Of a DNA stretch of 23,118 nt, positions 1-20,380 are shown in pieces. The stretch spans positions 1 to 23,118 of the IMG/VR virus record IMGVR_UViG_2565956626_000019, one strand, 5' to 3'. This DNA comes from a virus. Lineage: Duplodnaviria; Heunggongvirae; Uroviricota; Caudoviricetes. The notes under the pieces were generated by a model that saw only the letters and a program-made list of their open reading frames with translations, did no database searches and was not told the origin of the DNA. Numbering within the stretch: position 1 is the stretch's first letter; each line of letters opens with the position of its first letter. The position numbers and the translations under genes are program-made.

Positions 1-1158
1 ATGCTCACCGTTAAGCAGATTGAAGCAGCAAAGCCGAAAGAAAAACCATACCGCCTTCTCGATGGTAATGGCCTGTACCTTTATGTCCCTGTATCAGGGA
101 AAAAGGTATGGCAGCTTCGCTACAAGATTGACGGTAAGGAGAAAATCCTGACTGTCGGAAAATATCCGCTTATGACTTTGCAGGAAGCAAGGGATAAGGC
201 ATGGACTGCGAGGAAAGACATCTCGGTTGGCATCGATCCGGTAAAGGCGAAAAAGACTTCGTCTAACAACAATTCATTTAGTGCGATTTACAAGGAATGG
301 TACGAGCACAAGAAGCAAGTCTGGTCAGTAGGCTATGCAACTGAACTTGCCAAAATGTTTGATGACGACATTTTACCCATCATCGGCGGTCTTGAAATTC
401 AGGATATTGAGCCGATGCAACTGCTGGAAGTAATCCGCAGATTTGAAGATCGCGGTGCAATGGAGCGAGCCAACAAAGCACGCAGAAGATGCGGCGAGGT
501 TTTCCGTTACGCTATTGTCACCGGCAGGGCTAAATATAACCCGGCACCTGACCTTGCAGACGCCATGAAAGGATACCGCAAGAAGAACTTCCCGTTTCTT
601 CCAGCAGACCAGATCCCTGCATTCAACAAAGCACTGGCAACATTTTCAGGAAGCATCGTATCGCTCATTGCGACCAGAGTTTTACGCTACACAGCCCTAA
701 GAACGAAAGAGCTTCGTTCCATGCAATGGAAGAACGTCGATTTTGAAAACAGGATTATCACCATCGATGCCAGTGTGATGAAGGGTCGAAAAATTCATGT
801 GGTCCCGATGTCAGACCAGGTGGTTGAACTTCTCACTACGCTAAGCTCAATCACCAAACCAGTCTCAGAGTTTGTTTTTGCCGGGCGCAACGATAAGAAG
901 AAGCCAATCTGCGAGAACGCGGTATTGCTTGTGATCAAACAAATCGGCTATGAGGGTCTGGAAAGCGGTCACGGATTCAGGCATGAATTCAGCACGATTA
1001 TGAACGAGCACGAATGGCCTGCTGACGCTATTGAAGTGCAACTGGCACATGCCAACGGCGGATCTGTGCGCGGGATTTACAACCATGCTCAGTATCTGGA
1101 TAAGCGCAGAGAAATGATGCAGTGGTGGGCGGACTGGCTTGATGAAAAGGTGGAGTGA
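1..1158 (+). CDS. int: Tyrosine integrase, P4-like family (N-terminal arm-binding domain plus C-terminal catalytic domain). ATG sits at window base 1, so an upstream extension cannot be excluded.
   Basis: 385-aa ORF. N-terminus LTVKQIEAAKPKEKPYRLLDGNGLYLYV...GKEKILTVGKYP is typical of P4-type integrases. C-terminus has HGFRHEF (His/Arg box) and RGIYNHAQYL (candidate Tyr nucleophile). Stop TGA at 1156-1158. Confidence 0.9.
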   Translation: MLTVKQIEAAKPKEKPYRLLDGNGLYLYVPVSGKKVWQLRYKIDGKEKILTVGKYPLMTLQEARDKAWTARKDISVGIDPVKAKKTSSNNNSFSAIYKEWYEHKKQVWSVGYATELAKMFDDDILPIIGGLEIQDIEPMQLLEVIRRFEDRGAMERANKARRRCGEVFRYAIVTGRAKYNPAPDLADAMKGYRKKNFPFLPADQIPAFNKALATFSGSIVSLIATRVLRYTALRTKELRSMQWKNVDFENRIITIDASVMKGRKIHVVPMSDQVVELLTTLSSITKPVSEFVFAGRNDKKKPICENAVLLVIKQIGYEGLESGHGFRHEFSTIMNEHEWPADAIEVQLAHANGGSVRGIYNHAQYLDKRREMMQWWADWLDEKVE

Positions 1159-1266: not shown

Positions 1267-3444
1267 CTATCTAATCCTGAACATTACAATTGGAGCAGAG
1301 CCAGAAGATAAAGGGCCTGACCAATGGTATCTAATTCTGAAAGAAGACTCACTTGGAGTTCCGATAATTTCTATTGGACTTAAAGTTGCACCTTCTGCAG
1401 AACCAGCAGGTTGTCTAAACCCCAACACAGCAATCTGGTTTGGTGTTGGGGCATACAGAAAATTATGCTCAATATCAACCTCGTTAGATTCGCTACCTGT
1501 TGGGTTTGGCATATTCCACTCAATATAATCGTCAGTTGATTTCCCATTTATTGAGTTTCCAACTGTTGCCATAATCGTCCACGTACACGTCCTGTTAAGG
1601 GCTGCCATTCTATCACCTAAAAACCTATTATAACCATTTGCGCCTGAAGTGATTAATCTTATATTCTCTGATGCACATGTGCCAATGCTGTTAAATCCAG
1701 TGCAATCAGAAGAAAGCCCCTTCGCAGTTATATCTACGCTGTTCGCAAAACAAATTGTTGTTGAATTTACTGCATCGCGAATAAGAGCAGAACCCGAAAA
1801 CAAATTATCACACGAACCTCTTATATTATTACCACCGCCGGATAAGTAACATAAATTTCCTTTTATCCTCTTGGATGTAAAAGTAACATTGTTATTGTCA
1901 CCAGTAACAGAAAGAAGCGAGGCTTTAATAGGGGCATTGTCACTCTGCAACTGACCAATTTGGTTTATTGTAACTACATTGTTGTTGCCTGATATAGCTA
2001 TCTGATACCCATCATCATCAATTGAAGGTGAATATCTTTGTGCTTTTATATTGATGTTAAGTGTCCAGATTTTACCGTTATCCAGAAGCATGTCGCGGAG
2101 AGGAGAAATTGAATCGCCAGTGTAGTTATCTGGCATTCTTCCGCACGCCCTGGCTTCTGCGATGGCAACAACACCATGTGCCCCGTTGGTAAACCAGTAA
2201 CCACCTAAACTATTATCAACACACACGTGCCTCGCATTGAATCGGTTAACACCCAGCGTCTTAAATCCATAGCCATAATACACAGCATATACATGGATGT
2301 AATTTATATCGACATGTCCTGTATAAGGAGACTGATTATCAAGAACAATTCCATGACATGATTCTCCTGGATAAAGAAGGCTTTGTTGGCTTGTTGCTGT
2401 TAATCTTGCGCTGTAAGGAGGAAGTCCACACAGGCCAAAAACAATATAATCTAGGTTAATATCACCTGGCCCCCTGAACACAACCCCCTCTCTCCCTGAA
2501 ATTCTTCCCGTTATCCTCACTTCAGAGGCGTGTTCCTGATTATCATGAAATGATCCATACCCCTCTGAATAGAGAGCATGTTCTGCAACATTATTAATCT
2601 CAACGTCAATGTGGTACATGCTGCCGAATATTTTAATGGCAGTTCCATAGTCATTGTTAACAGTGTCGCAAGTTCTCCATGAGTTTGTATCTCTTTGCAA
2701 GTCAAGATAATTACCATCAATGGTCATATCTTTTATGCTAAATCCATATGGCGCATCAGACAGATTTTCCACAACGCCAAAGCCATGTGTTTTAAATACA
2801 TCTGTATTACTACCTTTTTTAACATACAGAAATGTTGCTCTCTTTCCAGAGCCTTTATGATGAACGCCTGTATAAAGAATGATAGGAGAATCTATTAAAT
2901 AAACACCTGGAGGGTAAAATATTTCCCCACCACCATTATTAAAAGCAGCTAATGCTGCGGCATTAATGGCATCAGAATCTGATGTCAATCCATCTGCTTT
3001 AGCTCCATAGTATTGAGGTGTTTTCCTGATTGCATCGTAAACCGTTGAAGCGCCGAAACCGATATATTTACTACCATCTGTACCGCCAATAAGTAATTTA
3101 AACTGATCCGGGTCGTACTTCAACACATTAGGAAAATTGAACTGCTGCGCCCCATATGCATCATAAACAGCCATAGAATGGCCTTGCACAGTTACGAACT
3201 TGGCAATCTGTCCGTTATATACCGGGTAACCAGCAGCGTTAATGATGATTGGTTGAGAAACAGGAACGTGAGAGCCGTCTTCGTTCTCCACATAAACCTG
3301 AATCTGGTTTTCTGGATTTACTGGGTCAGTGTCAATTTTACCGATATAAATTTTACCATTGGCAACTGCTTTAAAAGAACGCGCCATAGTGAAGAGTTGC
3401 GATGGCATGCTTACCACAACATTGGCATTTATTGAATCTGTCAT
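1267..3444 (-). CDS. Tailspike protein: P22-gp9-type N-terminal head-binding domain fused to a divergent beta-helix-like receptor-binding domain.
   Basis: 725 aa. N-terminus [44 protein letters not shown]...[13 protein letters not shown]...[10 protein letters not shown] closely matches my recollection of the P22 tailspike N-terminus. Remainder is Gly/Asn/Ser-rich repeat-like sequence. ATG at 3444 with GGAG 8 nt upstream; TAG stop at 1267-1269. Confidence 0.85.
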
Positions 3445-3576
3445 TTAATTTGCTCCAGATACAAGGAATCACCGCAGCATGGCTACGGTTGGAATTTGTT
3501 ACATACCTAAACGGTACGATTGTTGATTTGTACAGTGGGTTTTACGATGCCATTCCACCCATTTGGTGAGGCATTG

Positions 3577-3834
3577 ATGATGTACAGCAAATACGATGAG
3601 GCGCAGTTCCACTTGAGGCTTACACACGAGTTGCACGCTAAGATTAAGCAGCGTGCAAAAATGAATAACAGGTCTATCAATTCCGAAATTGTGGCTACGA
3701 TGGAAGAATCACTCTCCAAACCATCACCTGTAAGCGGGTATCGTGATGAAGAAGAGAGGCTGGCCTCATTAATCTCGGAACGAGTAAAAGAAGTTGCGGC
3801 TGATATCCTTAGAAAAGAAAAAACCCGCGATTAA
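3577..3834 (+). CDS. mnt: Mnt-like ribbon-helix-helix repressor (Arc/MetJ superfamily with C-terminal oligomerisation helix).
   Basis: Residues NNRSINSEIVATMEESLSKPSPVSGYRDEEERLASLI align with recalled P22 Mnt (NGRSMNSELLQIVQDALSKPSPVTGYRNDAERLA). ATG-ATG at 3577-3582 preceded by GGTGAGG 5 nt upstream. The track ORF from 3520 starts at a TTG and is probably an artefactual extension. Confidence 0.8.
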   Translation: MMYSKYDEAQFHLRLTHELHAKIKQRAKMNNRSINSEIVATMEESLSKPSPVSGYRDEEERLASLISERVKEVAADILRKEKTRD

Positions 3835-3850
3835 GCGGGTTTAGTTGGTT
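3811..3850. terminator. Bidirectional intrinsic terminator shared by convergent mnt (+) and the arc-bro-ant-orf73 operon (-).
   Basis: Stem AAACCCGC (3821-3828), loop GATTAA, stem GCGGGTTT (3835-3842). A-run at 3813-3823 gives UUUUUUCUUUU after the hairpin on the minus strand; T-rich TTTAGTTGGTT follows on the plus strand. Overlaps the mnt stop codon. Confidence 0.65.
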
Positions 3851-4070
3851 AGTTATCAAAAAGTCCGTACGTTTCTTCTTCTTCAGGTGTAAGGGGAAGA
3901 ATCTCTACTCTATCTATAGATACCTTTTCAATGTACCCATGAGGTCTACTTAAAATTAAAGCTCTCTCATGCCACAGAACTCCAAGAATGTGATACCTTC
4001 CAGCATCGCCTTTTACCCTGGCTCTTCCTTTGATTCTTGGAGGCATAATGCCATATTTTTTCTTTGCCAT
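3849..4070 (-). CDS. Hypothetical small basic protein with acidic C-terminal tail (73 aa), translationally coupled to the upstream Ant-like gene.
   Basis: ATG at 4070-4068 overlaps the upstream TAA in a TAATG arrangement. Sequence MAKKKYGIMPPRIKGRARVKGD...LTPEEEETYGLFDN. No family recognised. Confidence 0.5.
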   Translation of the reverse strand: MAKKKYGIMPPRIKGRARVKGDAGRYHILGVLWHERALILSRPHGYIEKVSIDRVEILPLTPEEEETYGLFDN

Positions 4071-4798
4071 TATGCAACATTACTCCCATGAATCAGGTGT
4101 TGTAGTGCTTTAACACCTTCCGCATTGTAGCGGAATGCTTCCACCTGTTTGCTGGAATGCGCAGATTTATCCAGGAAGAACTTCCCGTACTGCTCAGTTT
4201 TGAGGTTGTTTGCGTTAGCAATGCGACCAATCTTGTTGGCCGTTACTCCAAGCTGCTCTGCAACCTCCCCTGCTGAGTAGTAATGCTCTTCTATTGCCGG
4301 AAGAGGTATTGCATTAAAACCAACGAGCGGGTTGATTATACTTGCTGCCGCTGTCTGCTTTGCCTCAGGCGCAAGATTTGGCATCAGATCGAACAGATTG
4401 GTAACAGCTTCAACCGTCATTTTCAGTGTTCGCGCCTGGCGATACTCAACAAGTCCACTCGACGATTTACCGCTTTTAATGTGCGCTTCTTGCATACTTT
4501 CAAGTTGGTCTACAAGTGAGCGGCGAACAGCTTTAGATTCACGAGCAGCCACTCGAAGGGCTTGCTTAATTGACATAACAACTTTTTCAGAAGTTGTCTT
4601 GTTTGATTTTTGAACTACGAAAATTTCGTAGTGCTCACCTTCAAGTTCATCCTTAATGCGTGCAATAAAGTCGTTATTGCGAACTTCTTTTTCCCCGCAC
4701 TGTCTACGAGCATGATTGACCATCTCTAACAGGTACTGGCTATCAATGGTTTTATCCGTGACAACGGATCCGATGTTTGCTACATTCTTAAAAGTCAT
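4070..4798 (-). CDS. Antirepressor-like protein with C-terminal KilAC/ANT-type domain.
   Basis: 242 aa from ATG at 4798, with AAGGAA 6 nt upstream. C-terminal segment YYSAGEVAEQLGVTANKIGRIANANNLKTEQYGKFF resembles the antirepressor KilAC DNA-binding motif. The track ORF to 4885 begins at a TTG. Confidence 0.6.
   Translation of the reverse strand: MTFKNVANIGSVVTDKTIDSQYLLEMVNHARRQCGEKEVRNNDFIARIKDELEGEHYEIFVVQKSNKTTSEKVVMSIKQALRVAARESKAVRRSLVDQLESMQEAHIKSGKSSSGLVEYRQARTLKMTVEAVTNLFDLMPNLAPEAKQTAAASIINPLVGFNAIPLPAIEEHYYSAGEVAEQLGVTANKIGRIANANNLKTEQYGKFFLDKSAHSSKQVEAFRYNAEGVKALQHLIHGSNVA
4758..4786 (+). promoter_or_regulatory. Candidate sigma70 promoter on the plus strand, antisense to the ant-like gene start (P_sar-like).
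   Basis: -35 GTGACA at 4758-4763, 17-nt spacer, -10 TACATT at 4781-4786. Predicted start about 4793, reading across the ant-like start codon (4796-4798) and its Shine-Dalgarno (4805-4810). Confidence 0.4.
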
Positions 4799-4866
4799 TA
4801 GGCATTCCTTATGTGGTAGTAAGGGTGTGACATAGGCCGCCAGCAGCACACTGGCGGTTTTCTTTT
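4793..4866 (+). ncRNA. Candidate ~75-nt antisense RNA (sar-like) covering the ant-like ribosome-binding site, ending at a plus-strand intrinsic terminator.
   Basis: Plus-strand terminator: stem CCGCCAG (4837-4843), loop CAGCACA, stem CTGGCGG (4851-4857), then TTTTCTTTT (4858-4866). It lies inside a minus-strand operon and would not terminate minus-strand transcripts. Architecture mirrors P22 sar in the immI region. Confidence 0.45.
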
Positions 4867-4885
4867 GCGCCGTCCTGGGCACCAA

Positions 4886-5512
4886 TCAATGAATCCATTC
4901 CTCGCCGCGAAGTTTTGCCAGCATTGGCTGAGCGTTCTTTACGACAAAATTGTTGGGATCAAGATTCTTCATTTCACGAAGAAGCGATTTCTTGGTTTCT
5001 TCTGACATGTAGCGAGTCTCATATGCAATATCGTAAATCCTTCCTGAAAGCTCAGAACCAATTTGCTTCATTCCTGGGTAGATGTGTTTGCACATTTGTT
5101 GACTCTTCTCCATCCACAATTGTAAGTAGCAGAGATTAACCAGTTCTTCGTCAGTAAACTGTTTTGCAATCGGTGAGCATTCTGCCTGCCGATCCAAAAT
5201 ATCCAGCACCCAGCGGCGGAACTCTTTGGCTACCGGAGTGCGAGCAAACATCGCGATTAGGTGGGCACCGCGTAGTGAGAAAACTCGCACTTTTTTGCGA
5301 TAATTTCCTGAGGTACTCACTTCGAGTACCTGAGTCATTCCGGCGCTAAACTCATCGCTATACTTGTTATAAATCATTGTTACTGCACGGCTATTTGCAT
5401 ATTTAAGTGCAGATGCAATATTAGATGATGTAAACCAAACACCATGCATATCACGGGTGGGCACCAACTCAACTCCGTGGAAGTTGTAATCTGATTTTGC
5501 TACAATATTCAT
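4886..5512 (-). CDS. BRO-N/AntA-like antirepressor-family protein.
   Basis: 208 aa from ATG at 5512, with AAGGAAA 7 nt upstream. N-terminal region ...GVELVPTRDMHGVWFTSSNIASALKYANSRAV... and ...LIAMFARTPVAKEFRRWVLDIL match the BRO-N/KilA-N pattern. Alternative ATGs at 5542 and 5617 lack good SD. Confidence 0.65.
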   Translation of the reverse strand: MNIVAKSDYNFHGVELVPTRDMHGVWFTSSNIASALKYANSRAVTMIYNKYSDEFSAGMTQVLEVSTSGNYRKKVRVFSLRGAHLIAMFARTPVAKEFRRWVLDILDRQAECSPIAKQFTDEELVNLCYLQLWMEKSQQMCKHIYPGMKQIGSELSGRIYDIAYETRYMSEETKKSLLREMKNLDPNNFVVKNAQPMLAKLRGEEWIH

Positions 5513-5585
5513 GTTAGTTTCCTTGCATACGGTTACTGACATAGAGGCCCGGTTTGTGTTCGCGCACTGCCGGGCTTCACTATTT

Positions 5586-5759
5586 TTATTGGATGACAAC
5601 ATCGCCCTTTGCCTCAAGTTTCATCAATAACTCCATTCGATAAGCTATCTCTGCCTGAATTGACCTATGGCATCTTTTTGCTGATTCGCGGATATGTGAA
5701 TCAACCTTTTCTGTAAAACGAACCTGACGCGGCTTGATGGAAGATATCTTTTCAGTCAT
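5586..5759 (-). CDS. arc: Arc-like ribbon-helix-helix repressor, 57 aa (not in the supplied ORF track because it is under 60 aa).
   Basis: My translation: MTEKISSIKPRQVRFTEKVDSHIRESAKRCHRSIQAEIAYRMELLMKLEAKGDVVIQ. Aligns with recalled P22 Arc (..FNLRWPREVLDLVRKVAEENGRSVNSEIYQRVMESFKKEG). AGGAG 6 nt upstream of ATG (5759-5757); TAA at 5588-5586; first gene of the minus-strand operon. Confidence 0.6.
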   Translation of the reverse strand: MTEKISSIKPRQVRFTEKVDSHIRESAKRCHRSIQAEIAYRMELLMKLEAKGDVVIQ

Positions 5760-5858
5760 TATGCACTCCTGTTTTTGAAAAACTCATAATCTCACTTTTT
5801 GTAGTTTGATTATTCACTCACACTCAGTATGAGTCAATGAATTTTTTATGGTGAACTA
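5760..5858. promoter_or_regulatory. Divergent, overlapping promoter/operator region between the arc operon (-) and the CI-like operon (+).
   Basis: Minus-strand promoter: -35 TTGACT (5837-5832), 17-nt spacer, -10 AATAAT (5814-5809). Plus-strand candidate: -35 TTGATT (5806-5811), -10 TATGAG (5828-5833). Palindrome ACTCAgtaTGAGT (5822-5834) and tandem CACTCA repeats (5815-5826) overlap both promoters. Confidence 0.45.
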
Positions 5859-6500
5859 ATGAATTTTGACGATCAATTCCCATCAAGAGTATCTCTGGCA
5901 AGACAGTCCAGGGGTATGACGCAGGCGCAGTTGTCAAAATTAGCTGGTGTTGTTCAACGTCAAATAGCTGCATACGAGGGTGGTGAGGCTAAACCACGGC
6001 TTCGTGTATTGCAGGCATTAGCCAACGCATTAGGCACTACGGCTGAGTGGTTAGCTCTGGGTGAAGGTCAGGGGCCTGGAACAAAAAACGTCATGCCTGA
6101 CGTTCTGGTAAAGCAAATACCAATCCTCAAACTAGATGAAGTTATGCATTACCTAAACACAGGTGAACATTCATCGTCTAGATTTCATCCGGCAATATAC
6201 AATGTTGGTGACTCTGCATTTGCATTGACTATTGAAGGTGAAGCTATGACTACAAGTTCAGGTATTAGCTTTCCCAGAGGATCAGTTGTCACGTTCAGCC
6301 CTCTAGTAAAAGCTAAAAGCAAAGATTATGTAATAGCATCATTGGATAAAGAGCAAATATTGAGCTTCAAGCAGGTTTACATTGGTGAAATAGAGACAAA
6401 CTTAGTATCCCTAAACCCAATGTATCCTAATATTCTTGTTAGAAATGAAGATGTTAGTATTTTGGCAACCGCAGTTTACCTTGAAATCCCGTTGCTTTGA
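5859..6500 (+). CDS. Lambda CI-like repressor (XRE HTH plus S24/LexA-like C-terminal domain) that appears non-cleavable.
   Basis: 213 aa. HTH GMTQAQLSKLAGVVQRQIAAYEGG. C-domain DSAFALTIEGEAM...DYVIASL...SFKQV...LNPMYPNIL aligns with lambda CI DSAFWLEVEGNSM...DFCIARL...TFKKL...LNPQYPMIP. Ser149 equivalent is Ala; Lys192 equivalent retained; Ala-Gly scissile site position reads Asp-Glu. Confidence 0.8.
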   Translation: MNFDDQFPSRVSLARQSRGMTQAQLSKLAGVVQRQIAAYEGGEAKPRLRVLQALANALGTTAEWLALGEGQGPGTKNVMPDVLVKQIPILKLDEVMHYLNTGEHSSSRFHPAIYNVGDSAFALTIEGEAMTTSSGISFPRGSVVTFSPLVKAKSKDYVIASLDKEQILSFKQVYIGEIETNLVSLNPMYPNILVRNEDVSILATAVYLEIPLL

Positions 6501-6564
6501 TATCCTTTAGGAAGCGACACATTATCATCCGGTGTTCTGCTCAAAACTAAGGAGTGGCTACTCA

Positions 6565-7203
6565 ATGAAAAAAATAGATATATATAGCGATACATCAGCC
6601 TATGTCATAGGCTCATTGGGTTTTTTAATTTTTTTTGTTTGGCAGTACCAGTCACTATCTCCAGGATGGAGATTTTTGGGGATGTCTTTGATATCACTTG
6701 GTGCAGGAATAGCAACGCAGGTGTTGATGTATCTCTTTAATGGATGGATCTCAAAAAGAGTTGAGAAAAAAAGAGCTACTTCAATATGTAGAAGCCTAGC
6801 TATTCCAGAAGACTCTACAGATCAGGATGATATTGCAAAATGTTGGCGGTATATGATTGCAAGATACTCAAATGAGTTACTGGCAAACAGACTGTCCGAC
6901 TTAATCGGGATCGTAGTTACCTCTGTTGGAACAATCATCAGTATAGGGATATCAATTTGGTATGTCGGGATGATTGTCTATTTTGTTTGGAATAGAGACT
7001 TCAATGAACCTTCCCTTCTTTTTATACCTTTATTTTTCAGGGTATTAGCATTCATATGTGAGTTATTGCTCTCTTTTTTCTGCAATGTTTTGTTCAACAG
7101 ATACCCAGGTGAAGCAAGAAAGTTTAATAAAAACTATGATGAGTTAAGGAGAACAGATCCTTTTCTATCAAGCAAAGAGTTCCGCGATTCCATTCGCAAT
7201 TAA
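6565..7203 (+). CDS. Multi-pass inner-membrane protein (4-5 predicted TM helices), co-operonic with the CI-like gene; function unknown (exclusion/immunity candidate).
   Basis: 212 aa from ATG at 6565, with AAGGAG 10 nt upstream. Hydrophobic segments AYVIGSLGFLIFFVWQY, FLGMSLISLGAGIATQVLMYLF, LIGIVVTSVGTIISIGISIWYVGMIVYFVW, LLFIPLFFRVLAFICELLLSFFCNVLF. Visibly AT-rich. Track ORF start at 6532 is an extension. Confidence 0.6.
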   Translation: MKKIDIYSDTSAYVIGSLGFLIFFVWQYQSLSPGWRFLGMSLISLGAGIATQVLMYLFNGWISKRVEKKRATSICRSLAIPEDSTDQDDIAKCWRYMIARYSNELLANRLSDLIGIVVTSVGTIISIGISIWYVGMIVYFVWNRDFNEPSLLFIPLFFRVLAFICELLLSFFCNVLFNRYPGEARKFNKNYDELRRTDPFLSSKEFRDSIRN

Positions 7204-13830: not shown

Positions 13831-14292
13831 TCACGTGCTCGGATCATCTTTCTCGATGTAAAACCGATTCCACGTAAACGCGCTTTTGTTACCACTACCG
13901 CGAGGCATGTCATTTCGCCGCTCAAGTGGTGGTATTTTGGTTAAAGCGATACAGATTGTTTGATATGCACTGTCAGCAGCGGTAAGGAGAGCGTCTGACG
14001 GCTGAATGACGTTATCCATGCACACTTGCACAGCGAGTTTCAAAGCGACGCCATCATTTGCCCATGCAGGGATACCTGAATCATCGTCAGGTAACGGCAT
14101 GATGCCGTTTTCTGTATCAGCAAACTGATATCCAAGCTCGATACCTTTAGCCTGCCATGCTGCCATCATGTCTTCGAGGTCATTAATGGCATCTTCAATT
14201 GCCTGAGGGTCAGCATCTGTCAACGTGGCATTGGAATACAGCCCGGCTTTTCGTAAAGCCTTAAGAACGAGATCACCCTTCGTTTTCGCCAT
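13831..14292 (-). CDS. Head-to-tail adaptor, P22 gp4-like.
   Basis: 153 aa. MAKTKGDLVLKALRKAGLYSNATLTDADPQAIEDAINDLEDMMAAW resembles the recalled gp4 N-terminus; positioned directly upstream of the gp10-like gene. Confidence 0.7.
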   Translation of the reverse strand: MAKTKGDLVLKALRKAGLYSNATLTDADPQAIEDAINDLEDMMAAWQAKGIELGYQFADTENGIMPLPDDDSGIPAWANDGVALKLAVQVCMDNVIQPSDALLTAADSAYQTICIALTKIPPLERRNDMPRGSGNKSAFTWNRFYIEKDDPST

Positions 14293-14461
14293 CTTCTTCC
14301 GCCTTAGCCACTTTATGCTTCGTTGCGGTTTCTTCAGGAGTTTTTACCCAGCCTTTTTTCAGGTGAGATTTAACTTCTTCGTCATCAACAATGATGTAAT
14401 CGACAGCAAACTGACCACAGGTGATCATGTTGCCAGGCTTATAGAGCATTGTTCGTGCCAT
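14273..14461 (-). CDS. Small hypothetical protein between the coat and gp4-like genes.
   Basis: 62 aa from ATG at 14461, with GGGAGAAG upstream. Track ORF from 14500 starts at a non-ATG codon inside the terminator hairpin. Overlaps the gp4-like start by 20 nt. Confidence 0.4.
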   Translation of the reverse strand: MARTMLYKPGNMITCGQFAVDYIIVDDEEVKSHLKKGWVKTPEETATKHKVAKAEEDGENEG

Positions 14462-14469
14462 TGTCTTCT

Positions 14470-14502
14470 CCCAATAAAAATGGGGCCGAAGCCCCACCAA
14501 AA
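14470..14502 (-). terminator. Intrinsic terminator/attenuator immediately downstream of the coat gene.
   Basis: Minus strand: coat stop TAA (14505-14503), then hairpin UGGGGC-UUCG-GCCCCA (14496-14481), then UUUUUAUU. Confidence 0.5.
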
Positions 14503-15762
14503 TTACTGCCCGGCAATAACGATGCCCGTATATTCAGGAACAAGTACAGAGCAACCGTACAGGGTGGTGAAACGCGCAGTGGTTACACCTTTGATGTGGT
14601 CGAAGGCGTAAGACATGATCAGCGTAGCGCCCTGCTCGGTGGTTGCTGTCATTACCTGTGGACCCTGACCAGTCGGGAACGCCAGTTTGCCGTACATCAG
14701 CTCAACAGAACCATCAGCCCAGAACAGGTTAGCAGGTGCTGCGTTCTTGTTGAGAATGGTGATTGCTGCAGTTTCTGCCGGCTTGGCATCGACGTTTGCA
14801 TATGGACGGCTCGCAACATCGGCATTTCCAACAGGGAGAATCTTTGGAGAGATTGTTACGGTGGTTCCTGCTGTGTCTACTGCCAGAACGCGGAATACCT
14901 GCGGCTGCCCGGTGGTATCTTTGGTGATCTGGTGTACGGAATTCACACCTGCGATGGTAAACGCATCGCCAACCTGCAAGCCTTTAGCAGATACCGTAAT
15001 GGTCCCCTGTCGGTTATCAACAGGCATGCCATTTGAATCTTTCGCTTCAACCTTGTGTTCAGGTTGATTTGATACTGTCAAGGTTTCAGTGCTTCCTGCC
15101 GGTAATCGACCGGAAATATCGGTCTTGTAGCTATCAAAGGAAGCAACCGGAGGGATCTGCGCTTTTTCGTATGCTGTCAGGGTTGCGCCCTGAGCGTAGG
15201 CACGGTGACCAAGCTCGCCAGCAAGGTCTTTGTAGTTGAATGGGTTCCAGAAAGAGCGACGGTTGATACCCTGAGGTACACCAATCGCCGTCATGGTGGC
15301 ATCAATATCTGCCGCACCATTCCACAAGGCGAGGCCCCGTGAGCCATTTTCTGAGGCAGGAATTGCGACCACGTTAGTAGCACGCTGCGTGACCATGGAA
15401 ATCAGGTCAGAGTCAATCTGTGCAGCAAGGCGCATGCCTGCGGCTCGACCAGCTTCAGTTTTATGTTCCGGGTCACGCATTTCACGCGCATCCAGAGTGT
15501 ACAGAATGTTTTTCGGCTCCTTGAACACAGAAGGAACAAGGCGCTGAACCAGTGCTGTTGGTGTTTTTTCGCTGAGGTCCAAGCCCTCCTCAATGTTCAT
15601 GTGGTAATGCTGCGGACGATACAGAACATCACCTGCTCGCTGCATTGCTGTATCACCGGGACGGAATTTTTTAGCGTTACGGGAAACTACGCAGGCGGCC
15701 TCAAAGCCTTCAACGTAGTTTTCGAACATGATTTCAAGGTCTTTTGCTAATTGGTTAGCCAT
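14503..15762 (-). CDS. Major capsid (coat) protein, P22 gp5/Sf6 gp5-like.
   Basis: 419 aa. Segments KKFRPGDTAMQRAGDVLYRP and NLFWADGSVELM parallel recalled P22 coat [20 protein letters not shown] and NVFWADDAIRIV. GGAG 8 nt upstream of ATG at 15762. Confidence 0.8.
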   Translation of the reverse strand: MANQLAKDLEIMFENYVEGFEAACVVSRNAKKFRPGDTAMQRAGDVLYRPQHYHMNIEEGLDLSEKTPTALVQRLVPSVFKEPKNILYTLDAREMRDPEHKTEAGRAAGMRLAAQIDSDLISMVTQRATNVVAIPASENGSRGLALWNGAADIDATMTAIGVPQGINRRSFWNPFNYKDLAGELGHRAYAQGATLTAYEKAQIPPVASFDSYKTDISGRLPAGSTETLTVSNQPEHKVEAKDSNGMPVDNRQGTITVSAKGLQVGDAFTIAGVNSVHQITKDTTGQPQVFRVLAVDTAGTTVTISPKILPVGNADVASRPYANVDAKPAETAAITILNKNAAPANLFWADGSVELMYGKLAFPTGQGPQVMTATTEQGATLIMSYAFDHIKGVTTARFTTLYGCSVLVPEYTGIVIAGQ

Positions 15763-16764: not shown

Positions 16765-18963
16765 TTACTGCTGTGGTTGTTGCTGAGTTGATTTTTGCAG
16801 GATGCTGCTGATGTCCATGCGCTGCGCATGGCCCTGTGCCTGACTTTTCAGGACAAGCTCTGCATCAGCACGGGCATTGTCTCCTTGCTGTTGCTGGAAC
16901 TGTCCGAGCAGTTTCAGAGCCTCGCGGATATCAGATTTCTGCTGGCTATCGGCAGATGCGAGGATTTTCACAACATTTGCCGCTGCAACCTGAGCATCAG
17001 TCTGTGCCTGGAATGCTTTAACCTGAATGGCTGCCTGCTCGTTCTGCGCTTTCTGCAATTCAGCCTGACCAGCAAGAAGCTGACCTTGCGCTGCAACCAT
17101 AGCCGGATCTGGCTGACTGGCCTGTTGTTGTTTCGCCTGCTCAACCATCTGCTGTTCTTCTGGCGTTCTCGGCTTGATAACTCCAGACAGAAGCAACTGA
17201 TTGCGGTTGTATTCTTTAAGATCGTCCATCCCTTCGCCGTCCATATTGTCGAGGATCATCGACGATACAAGGTCGTGTTTCGGCGTTCCGGGCGGGATAA
17301 GTGCCAGCATGGAAAGTAACGACTTAACCGTTGCATCACGGCGAGTAGCGAACGACTGACCGACATCGACAGTCACTTCATAGTTACCCTGCGAAAGGTC
17401 GTTAAGCGCGATAACCTGCCCTGTCTGACGGTCAACCACTTCACCAGTCATCAGCGCCACGTCATCGCTGCCGTCCTCATTAACGACACGCATCGGCGTA
17501 TCACTGCCATAGACTTCACGAGCCATAGAAAGCCACACGACGCCAGCGCGGCGCATGGATTTAGCCATGTTGTCCATGTAGATATAGGACTGCGTGTCCA
17601 TCCGGTTAAAGATGCTATCAACGGTATCGGTAGCGACGTTGCTCGGCATGTTCTCAAGCTGCGACGCACCTGTAATTTGCTGAATAGCAGTTCCGGTGTA
17701 CTGCAATAGCCCGGCAAGAGCAGGAGGCATTTGTGTCGGAGGTGTCCAGCCAGCAACCTGAGCCTCTGAAATGACCGTTCCGTTTTTGTCCTTCTTGCTC
17801 GTCATGGGAAGAACTGCAGGTCTTTTCTTATTCCTCTCTGCCCAGTAATTCATTAATGGGCCGGGAATGAAATCAACATCCACGATAGGAATGCCATCAC
17901 CGCCAGCCTGAGTAGCGTTATCTGCAATCATGGAAACCATCAGGTTCTCAAGACGCTGTGCATCCATCGCTTTTGCTGCGTGGCCTTCGATTCGCTCCTG
18001 ATTATCAACAAATGAGCGACGCCCATATACCGGGATGAGTGGAATATGTTCGCCCGGAATACGCTTCGGTTCTTCCAGCCATTCAGCGCCAGACAGAAGG
18101 CCGCAATAAACGCGGCGTTTCTTCACAGTTCGCTCACCAATCAGTTCGAATGCGCCATCGGTTAGCTCGTCGACAATATCTTTGATTTGCTCTTCATCAT
18201 AGATTGCCGTTTCTCCGCTGACAGGGTTACGCCACGCCGTGAGATTCACCTTCTCTATGCGAACTTCGTAGTAGCGTCCAACATAGATGGCATCGGGCGT
18301 TGACCAGTCATATTGAGTGCCAGTGTCATCACGAGAAAGGCTTGCCGCGATGGAATCAGGGTATTCAGCCTCGAACGCTTTGGGCGTCATGGAGAACATT
18401 TCCATAGCCCACATAGCATCAGAGCGGTCATATTGCTTGCTGTCCTGATCGAAGAAGACGCATGTCGCCGGGTCGTAAACAGGAAGAAGGCTAATGCGTC
18501 GCTGCTCGTTACTTGGGTCCATTTCATCTTCGTAATCGGCACACATGCGGAAACAACCGAATCCGCCCGTTACAGCATCATCAAATGCGTTATCACACGC
18601 TTCACCACCGGATGTTTCCTGATAATCAGCGCGGAATTTGCCGTTCATCTTTTCGGCTAACGCTTCCGATGCCTTATCGTCCTTCGGTCTGAATTTAACG
18701 CTGATGCGATTCTGTCGATACTCGCCAATGATGCGATCACATTCACGGGCAATCTTATTCAGTTCAAAGCGCGGATAATGCTCAAACCTGCCTTCATCAA
18801 ATGAGTAACCAGCGTTTGTGCTGCCTTCCCACTGTGCGCCGGACACCCTGACGAAGCGTTGAGCTTCTATAATCTGCTCACGCATATCCTGCGTTGCTGA
18901 CCAGGCATTATCAAAGTTGCACAGCACCTTGCGATGCCAGTCAGTCATCTTTTTTTCTGCCAT
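16765..18963 (-). CDS. Portal protein, P22 gp1-like.
   Basis: 732 aa. Gln-rich C-terminal barrel ...EEQQMVEQAKQQQASQPDPAMVAAQGQLLAGQAELQKAQNEQ...QRMDISSILQ parallels recalled P22 portal C-terminus; positioned after the large terminase gene. Confidence 0.9.
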   Translation of the reverse strand: MAEKKMTDWHRKVLCNFDNAWSATQDMREQIIEAQRFVRVSGAQWEGSTNAGYSFDEGRFEHYPRFELNKIARECDRIIGEYRQNRISVKFRPKDDKASEALAEKMNGKFRADYQETSGGEACDNAFDDAVTGGFGCFRMCADYEDEMDPSNEQRRISLLPVYDPATCVFFDQDSKQYDRSDAMWAMEMFSMTPKAFEAEYPDSIAASLSRDDTGTQYDWSTPDAIYVGRYYEVRIEKVNLTAWRNPVSGETAIYDEEQIKDIVDELTDGAFELIGERTVKKRRVYCGLLSGAEWLEEPKRIPGEHIPLIPVYGRRSFVDNQERIEGHAAKAMDAQRLENLMVSMIADNATQAGGDGIPIVDVDFIPGPLMNYWAERNKKRPAVLPMTSKKDKNGTVISEAQVAGWTPPTQMPPALAGLLQYTGTAIQQITGASQLENMPSNVATDTVDSIFNRMDTQSYIYMDNMAKSMRRAGVVWLSMAREVYGSDTPMRVVNEDGSDDVALMTGEVVDRQTGQVIALNDLSQGNYEVTVDVGQSFATRRDATVKSLLSMLALIPPGTPKHDLVSSMILDNMDGEGMDDLKEYNRNQLLLSGVIKPRTPEEQQMVEQAKQQQASQPDPAMVAAQGQLLAGQAELQKAQNEQAAIQVKAFQAQTDAQVAAANVVKILASADSQQKSDIREALKLLGQFQQQQGDNARADAELVLKSQAQGHAQRMDISSILQKSTQQQPQQ

Positions 18964-18964
18964 A

Positions 18965-20380
18965 TCAACCTACACCACAAGGAATTGAGTAACTGGAATA
19001 GTCGGGTTGCGCAGCCGACTCCGGGCAATGCATACACATCATCAGCGCATCAGCCAGGTTAGGAGATGGAATACCGAGCTTCTGCTTCATTTCGACCTTA
19101 GTCATAAGCTCCAGCTTCCCGTTGTTATTGAATTTGCGCTGAATCTGCGTCAGTTCTGCAAACAGCTTCTCCAGCATCTTCTCGCCTATCGCTTCTTTGT
19201 CGAAACTCAGCATGTCGTCGGGGTCTGCATACTCACCGTGAACAACCGCCCGATATGTCAGATACAGCCTGTCAGCCAGCGCGTAATAGAATTGCGCTCG
19301 CTTATTGCGGAACACATCGCCAATAGTGCGAACGTTGTCGCCCTGCACGACTTCATCAGCCCATGCCCCGGCCTGATACGGTGCATCTTCATCGAATGGC
19401 GATTCGCTGCCCTTGAACATCGTGGCGGTGATTTTCTTGCCGGAGAACGCTTCCGTTGTCTGTCTGCGCAGCCCTGCACCGACACCATCGCCATCCCACA
19501 GGTAATGGTCAGCGCCGTCTTCAATCGCCAGCGAAGTAGCCCAGTCAGCACCCTCGTTGATGTCCATCAGCAGACCTTCGGCAATGCGCTTAACTACCGA
19601 ACCGTGACGCGATGCATAACCTTTAGCATCTGGCCCTGTATCTGATGGGTCATGCGCAGAGACAACAGCGCCTTTCGCTTTCCATCCGAGTTTCTTGTGC
19701 GCATCGGTTGCGGCTTCAAGCCATTCACGTTTGATGATTGCCATATCACTTGCGCTTACCGGCTCACCAAGCCAGATGTGACGATACAGTGTCGGGTTTC
19801 TGCGTTTACACTCTTCCATCTCCAGACGGAGAACTTCAGGAAAGTGCGGGTTGTCGGTGTAGTTCACCGTCAGCAGACAAATATCATCGGGAGGGTTTAC
19901 TACGAATCGCTGATAGGTATCGTCGAGTATGTTCTTCGGGTTAAAGCTCACCCATATTTCAGAGAACGGCTTACGGATGGTTGGTATCAGGATATCCCAT
20001 GATTCCTTCGTTACCGCTTCCGCTTCTTCCACCCAGCAGATATCAATGCCTTCGAGAGATTTAATCTTCGTCGGGTTGTTTTTGATGCCGTAGAACATGA
20101 ATTCAGCATTCGTTCCGAGATGACGAATCATTGAACGCTGAATTTCAAACTCAGCCGAATACCCTTCACGCTCGATAGTGTCTTCAAGCAACCGGATTAC
20201 CGAATCGCTGATACTGTTTTGCAGTTCACGAGCGCAGAGAATACGCACTGGCTGCCGACGCACCGCTTCAACAAGCAGTCTCGCGATTGCCCATGACTTA
20301 CCGCTACCTCGACCGCCTTTGGCGACTTTGTAGCGATGCGCCTCAATGAACGGTTCAAAGATAGGATTAATCGAGGTCAT
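18965..20380 (-). CDS. Terminase large subunit, Sf6 gp2-like.
   Basis: 471 aa. Walker A KVAKGGRGSGKSW near the N-terminus; start overlaps the small-terminase stop (ATGA). Confidence 0.9.
   Translation of the reverse strand: MTSINPIFEPFIEAHRYKVAKGGRGSGKSWAIARLLVEAVRRQPVRILCARELQNSISDSVIRLLEDTIEREGYSAEFEIQRSMIRHLGTNAEFMFYGIKNNPTKIKSLEGIDICWVEEAEAVTKESWDILIPTIRKPFSEIWVSFNPKNILDDTYQRFVVNPPDDICLLTVNYTDNPHFPEVLRLEMEECKRRNPTLYRHIWLGEPVSASDMAIIKREWLEAATDAHKKLGWKAKGAVVSAHDPSDTGPDAKGYASRHGSVVKRIAEGLLMDINEGADWATSLAIEDGADHYLWDGDGVGAGLRRQTTEAFSGKKITATMFKGSESPFDEDAPYQAGAWADEVVQGDNVRTIGDVFRNKRAQFYYALADRLYLTYRAVVHGEYADPDDMLSFDKEAIGEKMLEKLFAELTQIQRKFNNNGKLELMTKVEMKQKLGIPSPNLADALMMCMHCPESAAQPDYSSYSIPCGVG

Follow-up and report, generated by a model that had tools for sequence, protein, structure and literature searches.

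A CI-like protein without the Ser nucleophile and Ala-Gly site of autocleavage as the probable SOS-blind repressor of an antirepressor cassette in a P22-like phage

We analysed a window of 23,118 nucleotides (the whole stretch presented here, i.e., positions 1 to 23,118 of the virus record IMGVR_UViG_2565956626_000019), with the focus on a 213-amino-acid CI-like protein encoded at positions 5859 to 6500. We propose, with a probability of about 70%, that this protein is an SOS-blind maintenance repressor of the adjacent antirepressor cassette and a functional analogue of the P22 repressor Mnt. Its 434/lambda-type helix-turn-helix (HTH) domain would occupy TATGAGT-type boxes, one over the −35 element of a strong candidate sigma-70 promoter and another, inverted, in the leader, and this occupancy would silence, in a lysogen, the operon that encodes a 57-amino-acid ribbon–helix–helix (RHH) protein and two antirepressors (ant1 and ant2). 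The C-terminal domain, which has the S24 fold, would provide dimerisation and probably cooperativity, while the repressor would be incapable of self-cleavage and activated RecA (RecA*) and the SOS response would be without effect on it. The RHH protein would be the counterpart of P22 Arc and a conserved candidate antisense RNA that of sar; together they would make up a self-contained cassette, inserted into the P22-like 'ant moron' of this phage, with the CI-like protein as its dedicated repressor.

The gene and the domain layout of its product are as follows.

5859 to 6500, plus strand: CI-like repressor gene, an open reading frame (ORF) for 213 amino acids whose ATG start is preceded by a GGTG Shine–Dalgarno sequence
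Residues 7 to 67, HTH domain; residues ~68 to 85, low-confidence linker; residues 86 to 209, S24-fold C-terminal domain (AlphaFold2 layout)

Two Pfam domains score above their curated cut-offs, namely HTH_3 (PF01381) at residues 14–65 (E 9.3e-13) and Peptidase_S24 (PF00717) at residues 108–206 (E 1.3e-12). Among PDB entries, the N-terminal domain of the 434 repressor matches the HTH (E 4e-6), and phmmer lays residues 108–206 over the C-terminal domain of lambda CI with two short gaps (E 1e-7), the identity being 30–34% by phmmer and Foldseek (32% by Foldseek). An AlphaFold2 model built from the family alignment, with a predicted local distance difference test score of 86.4, predicts an N-terminal domain of five helices and a beta-rich C-terminal domain; Foldseek superposes the latter on lambda CI (1f39_A) with a template modelling score of 0.84 and a root-mean-square deviation of 1.8 Å. 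Profile search and structure prediction thus agree on the S24 family and fold, and alanine stands at the nucleophile position. Membership of a named family was considered and rejected: no NCBIfam model reaches its cut-off (the best, RstR, scores 41 bits against a cut-off of 80), and PHROGs offers only the generic phrog_4 'transcriptional repressor'.

A 100% identical protein, JEP4_14 of Escherichia phage JEP4 (MT740315), is annotated 'repressor protein C2' at JEP4 14133–14702, its start being placed 24 codons after the ATG of the 213-amino-acid ORF. This start would delete helix 1 and part of helix 2, and the longer ORF, as in RefSeq WP_001008290.1, is therefore the likely product. WP_001008290.1 (ECHS_RS01605, from the HS-1 prophage of Escherichia coli HS) is also 100% identical, and positions 5586–6500, which hold the RHH gene and the repressor gene, have 100% nucleotide identity to ECHS_RS01605 and its neighbour. 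The identical protein recurs across 25 contigs of IMG/VR, and of 5,426 complete E. coli genomes, 28 carry the gene pair with at least 95% identity; apart from JEP4_14, the nearest phage repressor is only ~30% identical.

A preliminary description of this DNA had stated that the protein carries alanine at the position of the lambda CI nucleophile Ser149, retains the equivalent of Lys192, and has Asp-Glu at the Ala111-Gly112 scissile bond. The positions concerned are the following.

6243 to 6245, plus strand: codon GCT of Ala129, at the S24 nucleophile position (lambda Ser149, LexA Ser119), by HMMER and MAFFT
6369 to 6371, plus strand: codon AAG of Lys171, at the general-base position (lambda Lys192), by HMMER and MAFFT
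6141 to 6146, plus strand: Val95-Met96, in the columns of the lambda Ala111-Gly112 scissile bond, by MAFFT and the register of family member P0016

The alanine and the lysine were borne out both by the HMMER pairwise alignment, in which 'ltiEGEAMtt' of the query lies over 'levEGNSMta' of lambda CI and 'sFKqv' over 'tFKkl', and by a MAFFT alignment of 140 sequences (lambda CI, the C2 repressor of JEP4 and 137 relatives), so that a proper alignment places neither Ser nor Thr at the catalytic position. The statement about the scissile bond needs correction in part. The linker (residues 60–125) indeed contains no Ala-Gly or Cys-Gly, the protein having no Cys at all and its sole Ala-Gly at residues 29–30, within the HTH. 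However, the aligned residues are Val95-Met96, two residues away from Asp93-Glu94; the latter register was rejected because both the MAFFT alignment and the register check against P0016, which retains 'IPVFTHIMAG' against 'IPILKLDEVM' of the query, give Val95-Met96. In addition, residues 92–101 are predicted to form a helix (AlphaFold2 and DSSP) in place of the strand and loop that make up the cleavage site of LexA and lambda CI. The alanine, the lack of Ala-Gly or Cys-Gly and the helical segment together suggest that RecA*/SOS should not inactivate this repressor.

Could the protein still be an SOS sensor, via a non-canonical site, another nucleophile (Thr131, Thr132, Ser133 and Ser134 are candidates) or cleavage in trans by phage C2, LexA or UmuD? 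Lys171 is retained, and in two relatives, P0016 and P0045, Ser, Lys and Ala-Gly are all still present, suggesting that the ancestor was probably cleavable. However, the alanine sits within an otherwise conserved G-x-S-M motif, and a Ser-to-Ala change at the nucleophile abolishes cleavage in LexA and lambda CI; the linker and the predicted helix speak against it as well, and the Ser/Ala toggling in close relatives and Lys-to-Arg changes in others, described below, indicate relaxed catalytic constraint. We therefore regard a remaining SOS function as very improbable. Structures of LexA S119A are available in the PDB.

The loss of cleavage determinants, the central claim of the preliminary description, was confirmed, but it is not peculiar to this protein, since most relatives lack Ala-Gly and Ser and Lys were lost repeatedly. 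The catalytic states were counted for the 48 closest cluster representatives and for all 137 top relatives.

Ser and Lys, no Ala-Gly: 32 of 48 closest, 60 of 137 in all
Ser and Lys with Ala-Gly or Cys-Gly: 2 of 48 closest, 33 of 137 in all
Ser and Arg: 4 of 48 closest, 17 of 137 in all
Ala and Lys: 6 of 48 closest, 11 of 137 in all
Ala and Arg: 2 of 48 closest, 10 of 137 in all
Other states: 2 of 48 closest, 6 of 137 in all

Ala-Gly at the aligned position was found in none of the 72 viral (IMG/VR) loci. Ser is lost in several branches (EGEAM and GDAM here, IGDAM, a DPAM/DSAM/DAAM branch, EDEGM and QGDGM), and several relatives have Arg, Met or Val in place of Lys171. Within the clade of at least 71% identity, the window protein, P0002, P0004 and P0005 carry Ala, and P0003 (from locus L002, 81% identical) carries Ser, the codons TCT and GCT being one transversion apart; the nucleophile column toggles between Ser and Ala among close relatives. 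Next to this column, Gly127 is nearly invariant and Met130 invariant in the family alignment, which together with the toggling suggests that the motif is kept for structure and that the nucleophile is under relaxed constraint. The change from Ser to Ala thus appears to be the last step of a family-wide drift away from autoproteolysis. Distant Ser-retaining relatives (P0012–P0021, L044–L068) carry an extra C-terminal tail of ~50–70 amino acids (alignment columns 265–344), absent from the clade of the window protein, with a heptad-like motif (e.g., ERLSALENRLDEIMHLIR) that resembles a coiled coil and might contribute further to oligomerisation.

Far from decaying, the Ala-bearing C-terminal domain shows strong purifying selection. 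The ratio of nonsynonymous to synonymous substitution rates (dN/dS) for this domain is 0.02 between the window and L017 and 0.05 between the window and L031, at a dS of 0.14–0.17, and it is 0.02–0.05 in both domains of the repressor. These values bear on the idea that the gene is a decaying second immunity repressor with no present function, which the lost catalytic residues and the shortened start in the JEP4 annotation might seem to favour. This idea is hardly credible, given the constraint on both domains, the identity across the contigs and E. coli genomes counted above, an intact frame with a good ribosome-binding site, and the conservation of the partner genes and the control region; a decaying pseudogene was rejected on the first two grounds.

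The combination of decaying catalytic residues with a strongly constrained C-terminal domain also fits a domain kept for interactions. The protein could then still be a repressor of the antirepressor operon, but one that is switched off by a protein partner (an antirepressor of a co-resident or superinfecting phage, or the RHH protein or Ant of the cassette itself) or by a ligand that the S24-like domain, exapted as a sensor, would detect. The cassette would then relay signals between prophages. That antirepressors can act in trans and coordinate prophages is established from the Gifsy phages (PMC3121763). However, no specific partner is indicated by the sequence, and dimerisation and cooperativity explain the purifying selection equally well. 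It also counts against such a switch that Ant of P22 acts mainly from superinfecting genomes, so that Mnt requires no inactivator. We consider this alternative unlikely, although it deserves to be kept in mind. A wider proposal strikes us as decidedly unlikely, namely that the family as a whole represents a mobile cassette for induction control, its S24-like domain exapted from self-cleavage to signal reception. Under this proposal, the domain might bind RecA* without being cleaved, or another protein or ligand, and members with Ser and Lys but no Ala-Gly might cleave a different substrate in trans; if it held, a non-SOS cue would release trans-acting antirepressors and rank induction among co-resident prophages.

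The preferred reading, an uncleavable repressor of the antirepressor operon, draws further evidence from the region between the two divergent genes.

5760 to 5858: divergent control region from the RHH gene to the repressor gene, 99 bp
5809 to 5837, minus strand: candidate promoter of the RHH–antirepressor operon, TTGACT (5837–5832), 17-bp spacer, AATAAT (5814–5809), 10 of 12 consensus matches
5828 to 5834, plus strand: box 4, TATGAGT (then ...TCAA), a candidate operator half-site overlapping the −35 element and conserved across loci
5782 to 5788, minus strand: box 2, TATGAGT inverted, in the leader of the antirepressor operon, ~47 bp from box 4

The layout of this region is conserved, with a length of 97–100 bp for 41 of the 52 distinct loci of the family; GTCAA (= TTGAC) with a −10-like element at the same spacing recurs in most of them. 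Boxes 2 and 4 change together, from ACTCAT/ATGAGT in the near family to ACTTCAT/ATGAAGT in a distant branch. Helix 3 of the HTH is almost invariant (V-x-RQIAAYEGG) save for residue 33, which covaries with box 4: Arg33 occurs with TGTGTCAA in 6 of 6 protein clusters, and other residues occur with TGAGTCAA in 13 of 16 (Fisher p 1.3e-5, phylogeny not corrected for). In a neighbour-joining tree of 28 sequences, the Arg33 and Pro33 forms interleave (L052 with L051, L067 with L059), and the RHH proteins are of the same type within each of these pairs. Taken together, these observations suggest that the CI-like protein, rather than the RHH protein, reads box 4; as this box overlaps the −35 element, the protein would act as a repressor of the ant promoter, and it probably binds there. 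The suggestion in the preliminary description that the protein is a repressor of the accessory module gains support from this covariation and from the conservation of the cassette described below.

A simple rule, under which Gln, Arg and Pro at residue 33 would predict A, G and T, respectively, just 5′ of TG[A/T]GTCAA, was tried and abandoned; Gln and Pro fit and Arg is mixed, and the robust covariation lies at the next position, TGT versus TGA. The 13-bp palindrome ACTCAgtaTGAGT (5822–5834) was likewise rejected as the operator, since its left arm is not conserved beyond the closest clade, only the right-hand ATGAGT(CAA) being so. Control of the ant operon by host LexA was rejected as well: no LexA box (CTGT-N8-ACAG, at most one mismatch) occurs in 5760–5858, and matches across the window are at chance level. 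Many homologues (P0002, P0003, P0007, P0008, P0010, P0011 and P0016) are called with an 'MSQ...' N-terminal extension, which stems from in-frame translation of the conserved ATGAGTCAA box (−35/operator) as Met-Ser-Gln; in the window this frame stops at once (ATG AGT CAA TGA, 5829–5840), and for most loci we therefore take the extension as a probable annotation artefact.

On the other side of the control region, two further elements correspond to the small regulators of the P22 system.

5586 to 5759, minus strand: 57-amino-acid Arc-like RHH protein, first gene of the antirepressor operon (phrog_10182, 2.3e-36)
5498 to 5590, plus strand: candidate sar-like antisense RNA, with an extended −10 element TGcTACAAT at 5498–5506 and a transcript of ~5512–5590 with two hairpins and a U tract

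As a single sequence, the 57-amino-acid protein matches ParD_like (8e-4) and Arc (0.011) in Pfam, both below the cut-off. A profile of 39 homologues searched against the PDB retrieves AmrZ (3e-4), Arc (5e-4 to 0.015), CopG and Mnt (0.035), and hhalign of the family against P22 Arc gives a probability of 80%, suggesting that the protein is probably an RHH protein in the role of Arc. The candidate antisense RNA spans the RHH–ant junction, with complementarity to the ribosome-binding site and ATG of ant; its minimum free energy is −33.8 kcal/mol (z −5.3). A similar layout of hairpins and terminator was seen in nearly all of 28 diverse loci that were folded, with L046 as the clear exception, and of the 7 pairs recovered in hairpin 2, 5 show compensatory changes. 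From a plain MAFFT alignment, RNAalifold recovers only the base of hairpin 2, and hairpin 1 appears in single-sequence folds only. Against Rfam, no family was found at E values up to 0.1, symR being a sub-threshold match at E 0.7.

The cassette as a whole comprises the CI-like repressor, the ~99-bp control region, the 57-amino-acid Arc-like protein, the candidate antisense RNA and one to three antirepressor genes. Repressor homologues were followed down to 33% identity in protein collections and IMG/VR, and a homologue of the 57-amino-acid protein lies divergent from the repressor gene in 71 of 72 IMG/VR loci. The first ORF after the RHH gene, taken from 46 distinct loci, matches Bro-N in 32, P22_AR_C in 15, P22_AR_N in 9, ANT in 3, KilA-N in 2 and Rha in 2 cases, counts that overlap as one protein may have two of these domains. 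The hosts belong to Escherichia, Salmonella, Klebsiella, Leclercia, Yersinia, Tatumella, Providencia, Xenorhabdus and Morganella, and the cassette travels between P22-like and lambda-like phages across Enterobacterales. In the lambda-like siphoviruses L002 and L008, its neighbours are the tape-measure and minor-tail genes or the tail genes K and I; in L005–L007, it lies beside the integrase gene, and in L004 in another tailspike phage. The prophage of L009 has its own CI and Cro besides the cassette, and JEP4 has a separate C2/cro pair whose P22-type C2 carries SAG, GDSM and FKK, indicating that the cassette protein is an additional repressor. A role as the primary immunity repressor of a satellite or defective element was rejected, the cassette consisting of regulators and antirepressors only, inside the late or tail operons of complete phages.

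A comparison with the cassette of Salmonella phage SPN3UB shows how the front end of such a unit can vary. The ant gene of SPN3UB (NC_019545, L094 12049–13371) has 93.7% nucleotide identity to ant of the window (4836–5514), whereas its front end consists of a divergent Mnt-like regulator, with an N-terminus 58% identical to that of P22 Mnt, and an unrelated 57-amino-acid Arc-like protein, to which the RHH protein of the window has no similarity by BLASTP. Thus, CI-like and Mnt-like front ends appear interchangeable, as a near-identical ant stands behind either, and the point at which the similarity to SPN3UB stops, approximately the ant start codon, suggests the exchange of whole control front ends at this junction.

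While similar in architecture, we note several differences between the window protein and the repressors lambda CI, P22 C2 and 434 cI. The HTH_3 and Peptidase_S24 domains, the Lys position and the G-x-x-M around the nucleophile position are shared. However, as compared with these and with the autocleaving S24 proteins in general (LexA, lambda CI, UmuD), the window protein has Ala for the Ser nucleophile and Val-Met, in a segment predicted to be helical, for the Ala-Gly/Cys-Gly site. Furthermore, the gene lies between the gp16 and tailspike homologues, outside immC, and instead of a cro partner it is paired with an RHH–antirepressor operon in the late region.

This position is that of Mnt. The gene order in P22 is 16, sieA, orf59a, mnt and then, divergently, arc, sar, ant and 9, and the repressor gene of the window occupies the same slot, i.e., divergent from arc-ant, upstream of sieA and between genes 16 and 9. 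It would also do the same job, keeping the ant promoter off in the lysogen in an SOS-insensitive manner, whereas in fold it differs, with an HTH and an S24-like domain in place of the ribbon–helix–helix of Mnt, and it does not belong to the Mnt family. We infer a non-orthologous replacement of the function of P22 Mnt. The placement outside immC in the Mnt slot, as given in the preliminary description, was confirmed, with the qualification that Mnt itself has not been replaced.

3578 to 3834, plus strand: Mnt homologue (Pfam Arc 7.9e-15; mechanical ORF from 3520), annotated 'regulatory protein mnt' in JEP4

This gene lies ~2 kb from the repressor gene and points towards the antirepressor operon and away from the divergent tailspike gene; owing to its presence, the CI-like protein is better seen as filling the Mnt slot of an added cassette than as the sole substitute for Mnt. 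The region upstream of the Mnt homologue is 3445–3577, and a promoter into the tailspike gene is one possible target.

With its divergent repressor, small and probably RHH-encoding first gene, ant and candidate antisense RNA over the ant start, the cassette resembles P22 immI (mnt-arc-sar-ant) and the SPN3UB cassette; unlike these, it has a CI-like rather than a Mnt-like repressor, and its candidate antisense RNA has no Rfam match. It qualifies as a P22 'ant moron', having an ant homologue and lying between homologues of genes 16 and 9. Villafane et al. (2008; PMC2629481) drew an 'HS-1 type ant moron' with an IS3 in ant2 and pointed out that HS-1 lacks a recognisable arc, so that the control of ant must differ from that in P22. 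This moron is the same cassette as that of the window; PMC2629481 does not describe the CI-like repressor, the dead active site, the RHH protein or the antisense RNA, and the arrangement proposed here is a candidate for the different ant control of HS-1.

A further parallel is found in the Gifsy phages, in which antirepressor units are under LexA control (PMC3121763). Like GfoA and GftA of these phages, the antirepressors of the cassette form a unit apart from the immunity region that would be held off by a repressor of the LexA superfamily (PMC3121763). Unlike in Gifsy, the phage itself encodes the repressor, which serves the cassette alone and is predicted to be uncleavable; together with the lack of a LexA box, this predicts that the SOS link, central in Gifsy, is absent here. 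Tum of coliphage 186 and AntC of N15 are further LexA-controlled antirepressor modules.

Several points weigh against the maintenance-repressor interpretation. First, each box offers one clear half-site, the two lie ~47 bp apart, and the palindrome ACTCAgtaTGAGT is restricted to the near clade. Second, the covariation of residue 33 with box 4 is uncorrected for phylogeny and might also be explained by recombination that co-transferred the N-terminal domain with the operator, although such co-transfer would still imply a functional link. Third, some of the boxes could be bound chiefly by the RHH protein, and the true Mnt homologue in the same region might also act on the RHH–ant operon. Fourth, about two thirds of the close relatives retain Ser and Lys, and some residual catalytic role in the family is conceivable. 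Finally, no paper on the repressor family or the cassette was found beyond the HS-1 remark of PMC2629481, in a search that covered open-access text.

Antirepressor control shapes prophage stability and competition in polylysogens, as antirepressors let one phage induce or overcome another. On the interpretation favoured here, the logic of P22 immI would have a second front end, built from a CI/LexA-type protein that discarded its protease function and kept the fold. This is not a new kind of system, since degenerate S24 domains are common in HTH-S24 proteins and Mnt is already an SOS-insensitive repressor of ant; what is added is a conserved four-part cassette, a protease that decayed repeatedly while its fold stayed under strong purifying selection, and a specificity determinant that can be tested. 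The covariation of residue 33 with the operator provides this determinant ready-made, and the Ser/Ala toggling provides natural controls for a non-cutting S24 fold. Annotations such as 'LexA family', 'repressor C2' and 'S24 peptidase', and the predictions of SOS-inducibility derived from them, are unreliable, given that just 33 of the 137 top relatives combine Ser, Lys and Ala-Gly or Cys-Gly.

The window is a P22-like (Lederbergvirus) genome, reversed relative to JEP4, with 94% nucleotide identity to it over window positions 4000–6554. The remaining features around the cassette are listed below.

1 to 1158, plus strand: integrase
1267 to 3444, minus strand: tailspike (PF09008)
3821 to 3842: terminator-like hairpin, following the 73-amino-acid ORF
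3849 to 4070, minus strand: 73-amino-acid ORF, last gene of the operon, equivalent of JEP4_18
4070 to 4885, minus strand: antirepressor 2 (PHROG anti-repressor phrog_1726, 2e-100), likely start near 4798
4886 to 5512, minus strand: antirepressor 1 (P22_AR_C 4.6e-14, Bro-N 2.2e-10; PHROG anti-repressor Ant 4.9e-66)
6565 to 7203, plus strand: SieA-like membrane protein downstream of the repressor gene (PHROG superinfection exclusion, phrog_7745, 7.5e-21; mechanical ORF from 6532)

The likely start of antirepressor 1 is the ATG at 5512, the mechanical ORF extending to 5617, and antirepressor 2 is annotated KilA in JEP4. In E. coli HS (NC_009800, L083; locus 17411–19212), the antirepressor 2 gene is split by an IS3-family element, and a BREX-1 system lies ~14 kb from the cassette locus, past the end of the prophage. 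The SieA-like gene has its own promoter-like site (TTGATA-17-CATTAT, 6497–6525); it is not in JEP4 and is present in E. coli HS (L083 20980–21618). Beyond it follow gp16-like and gp20-like ejection proteins, the gp20-like ORF matching PF16928 (Inj_translocase) and the gp16-like ORF agreeing in position with the 'DNA transfer protein' of JEP4 and E. coli HS. The tailspike of the window differs from that of E. coli HS. The integrase and tailspike genes are convergent and only ~108 bp apart, an adjacency that is expected across attP in a circular or virion-form genome rather than in an integrated prophage.

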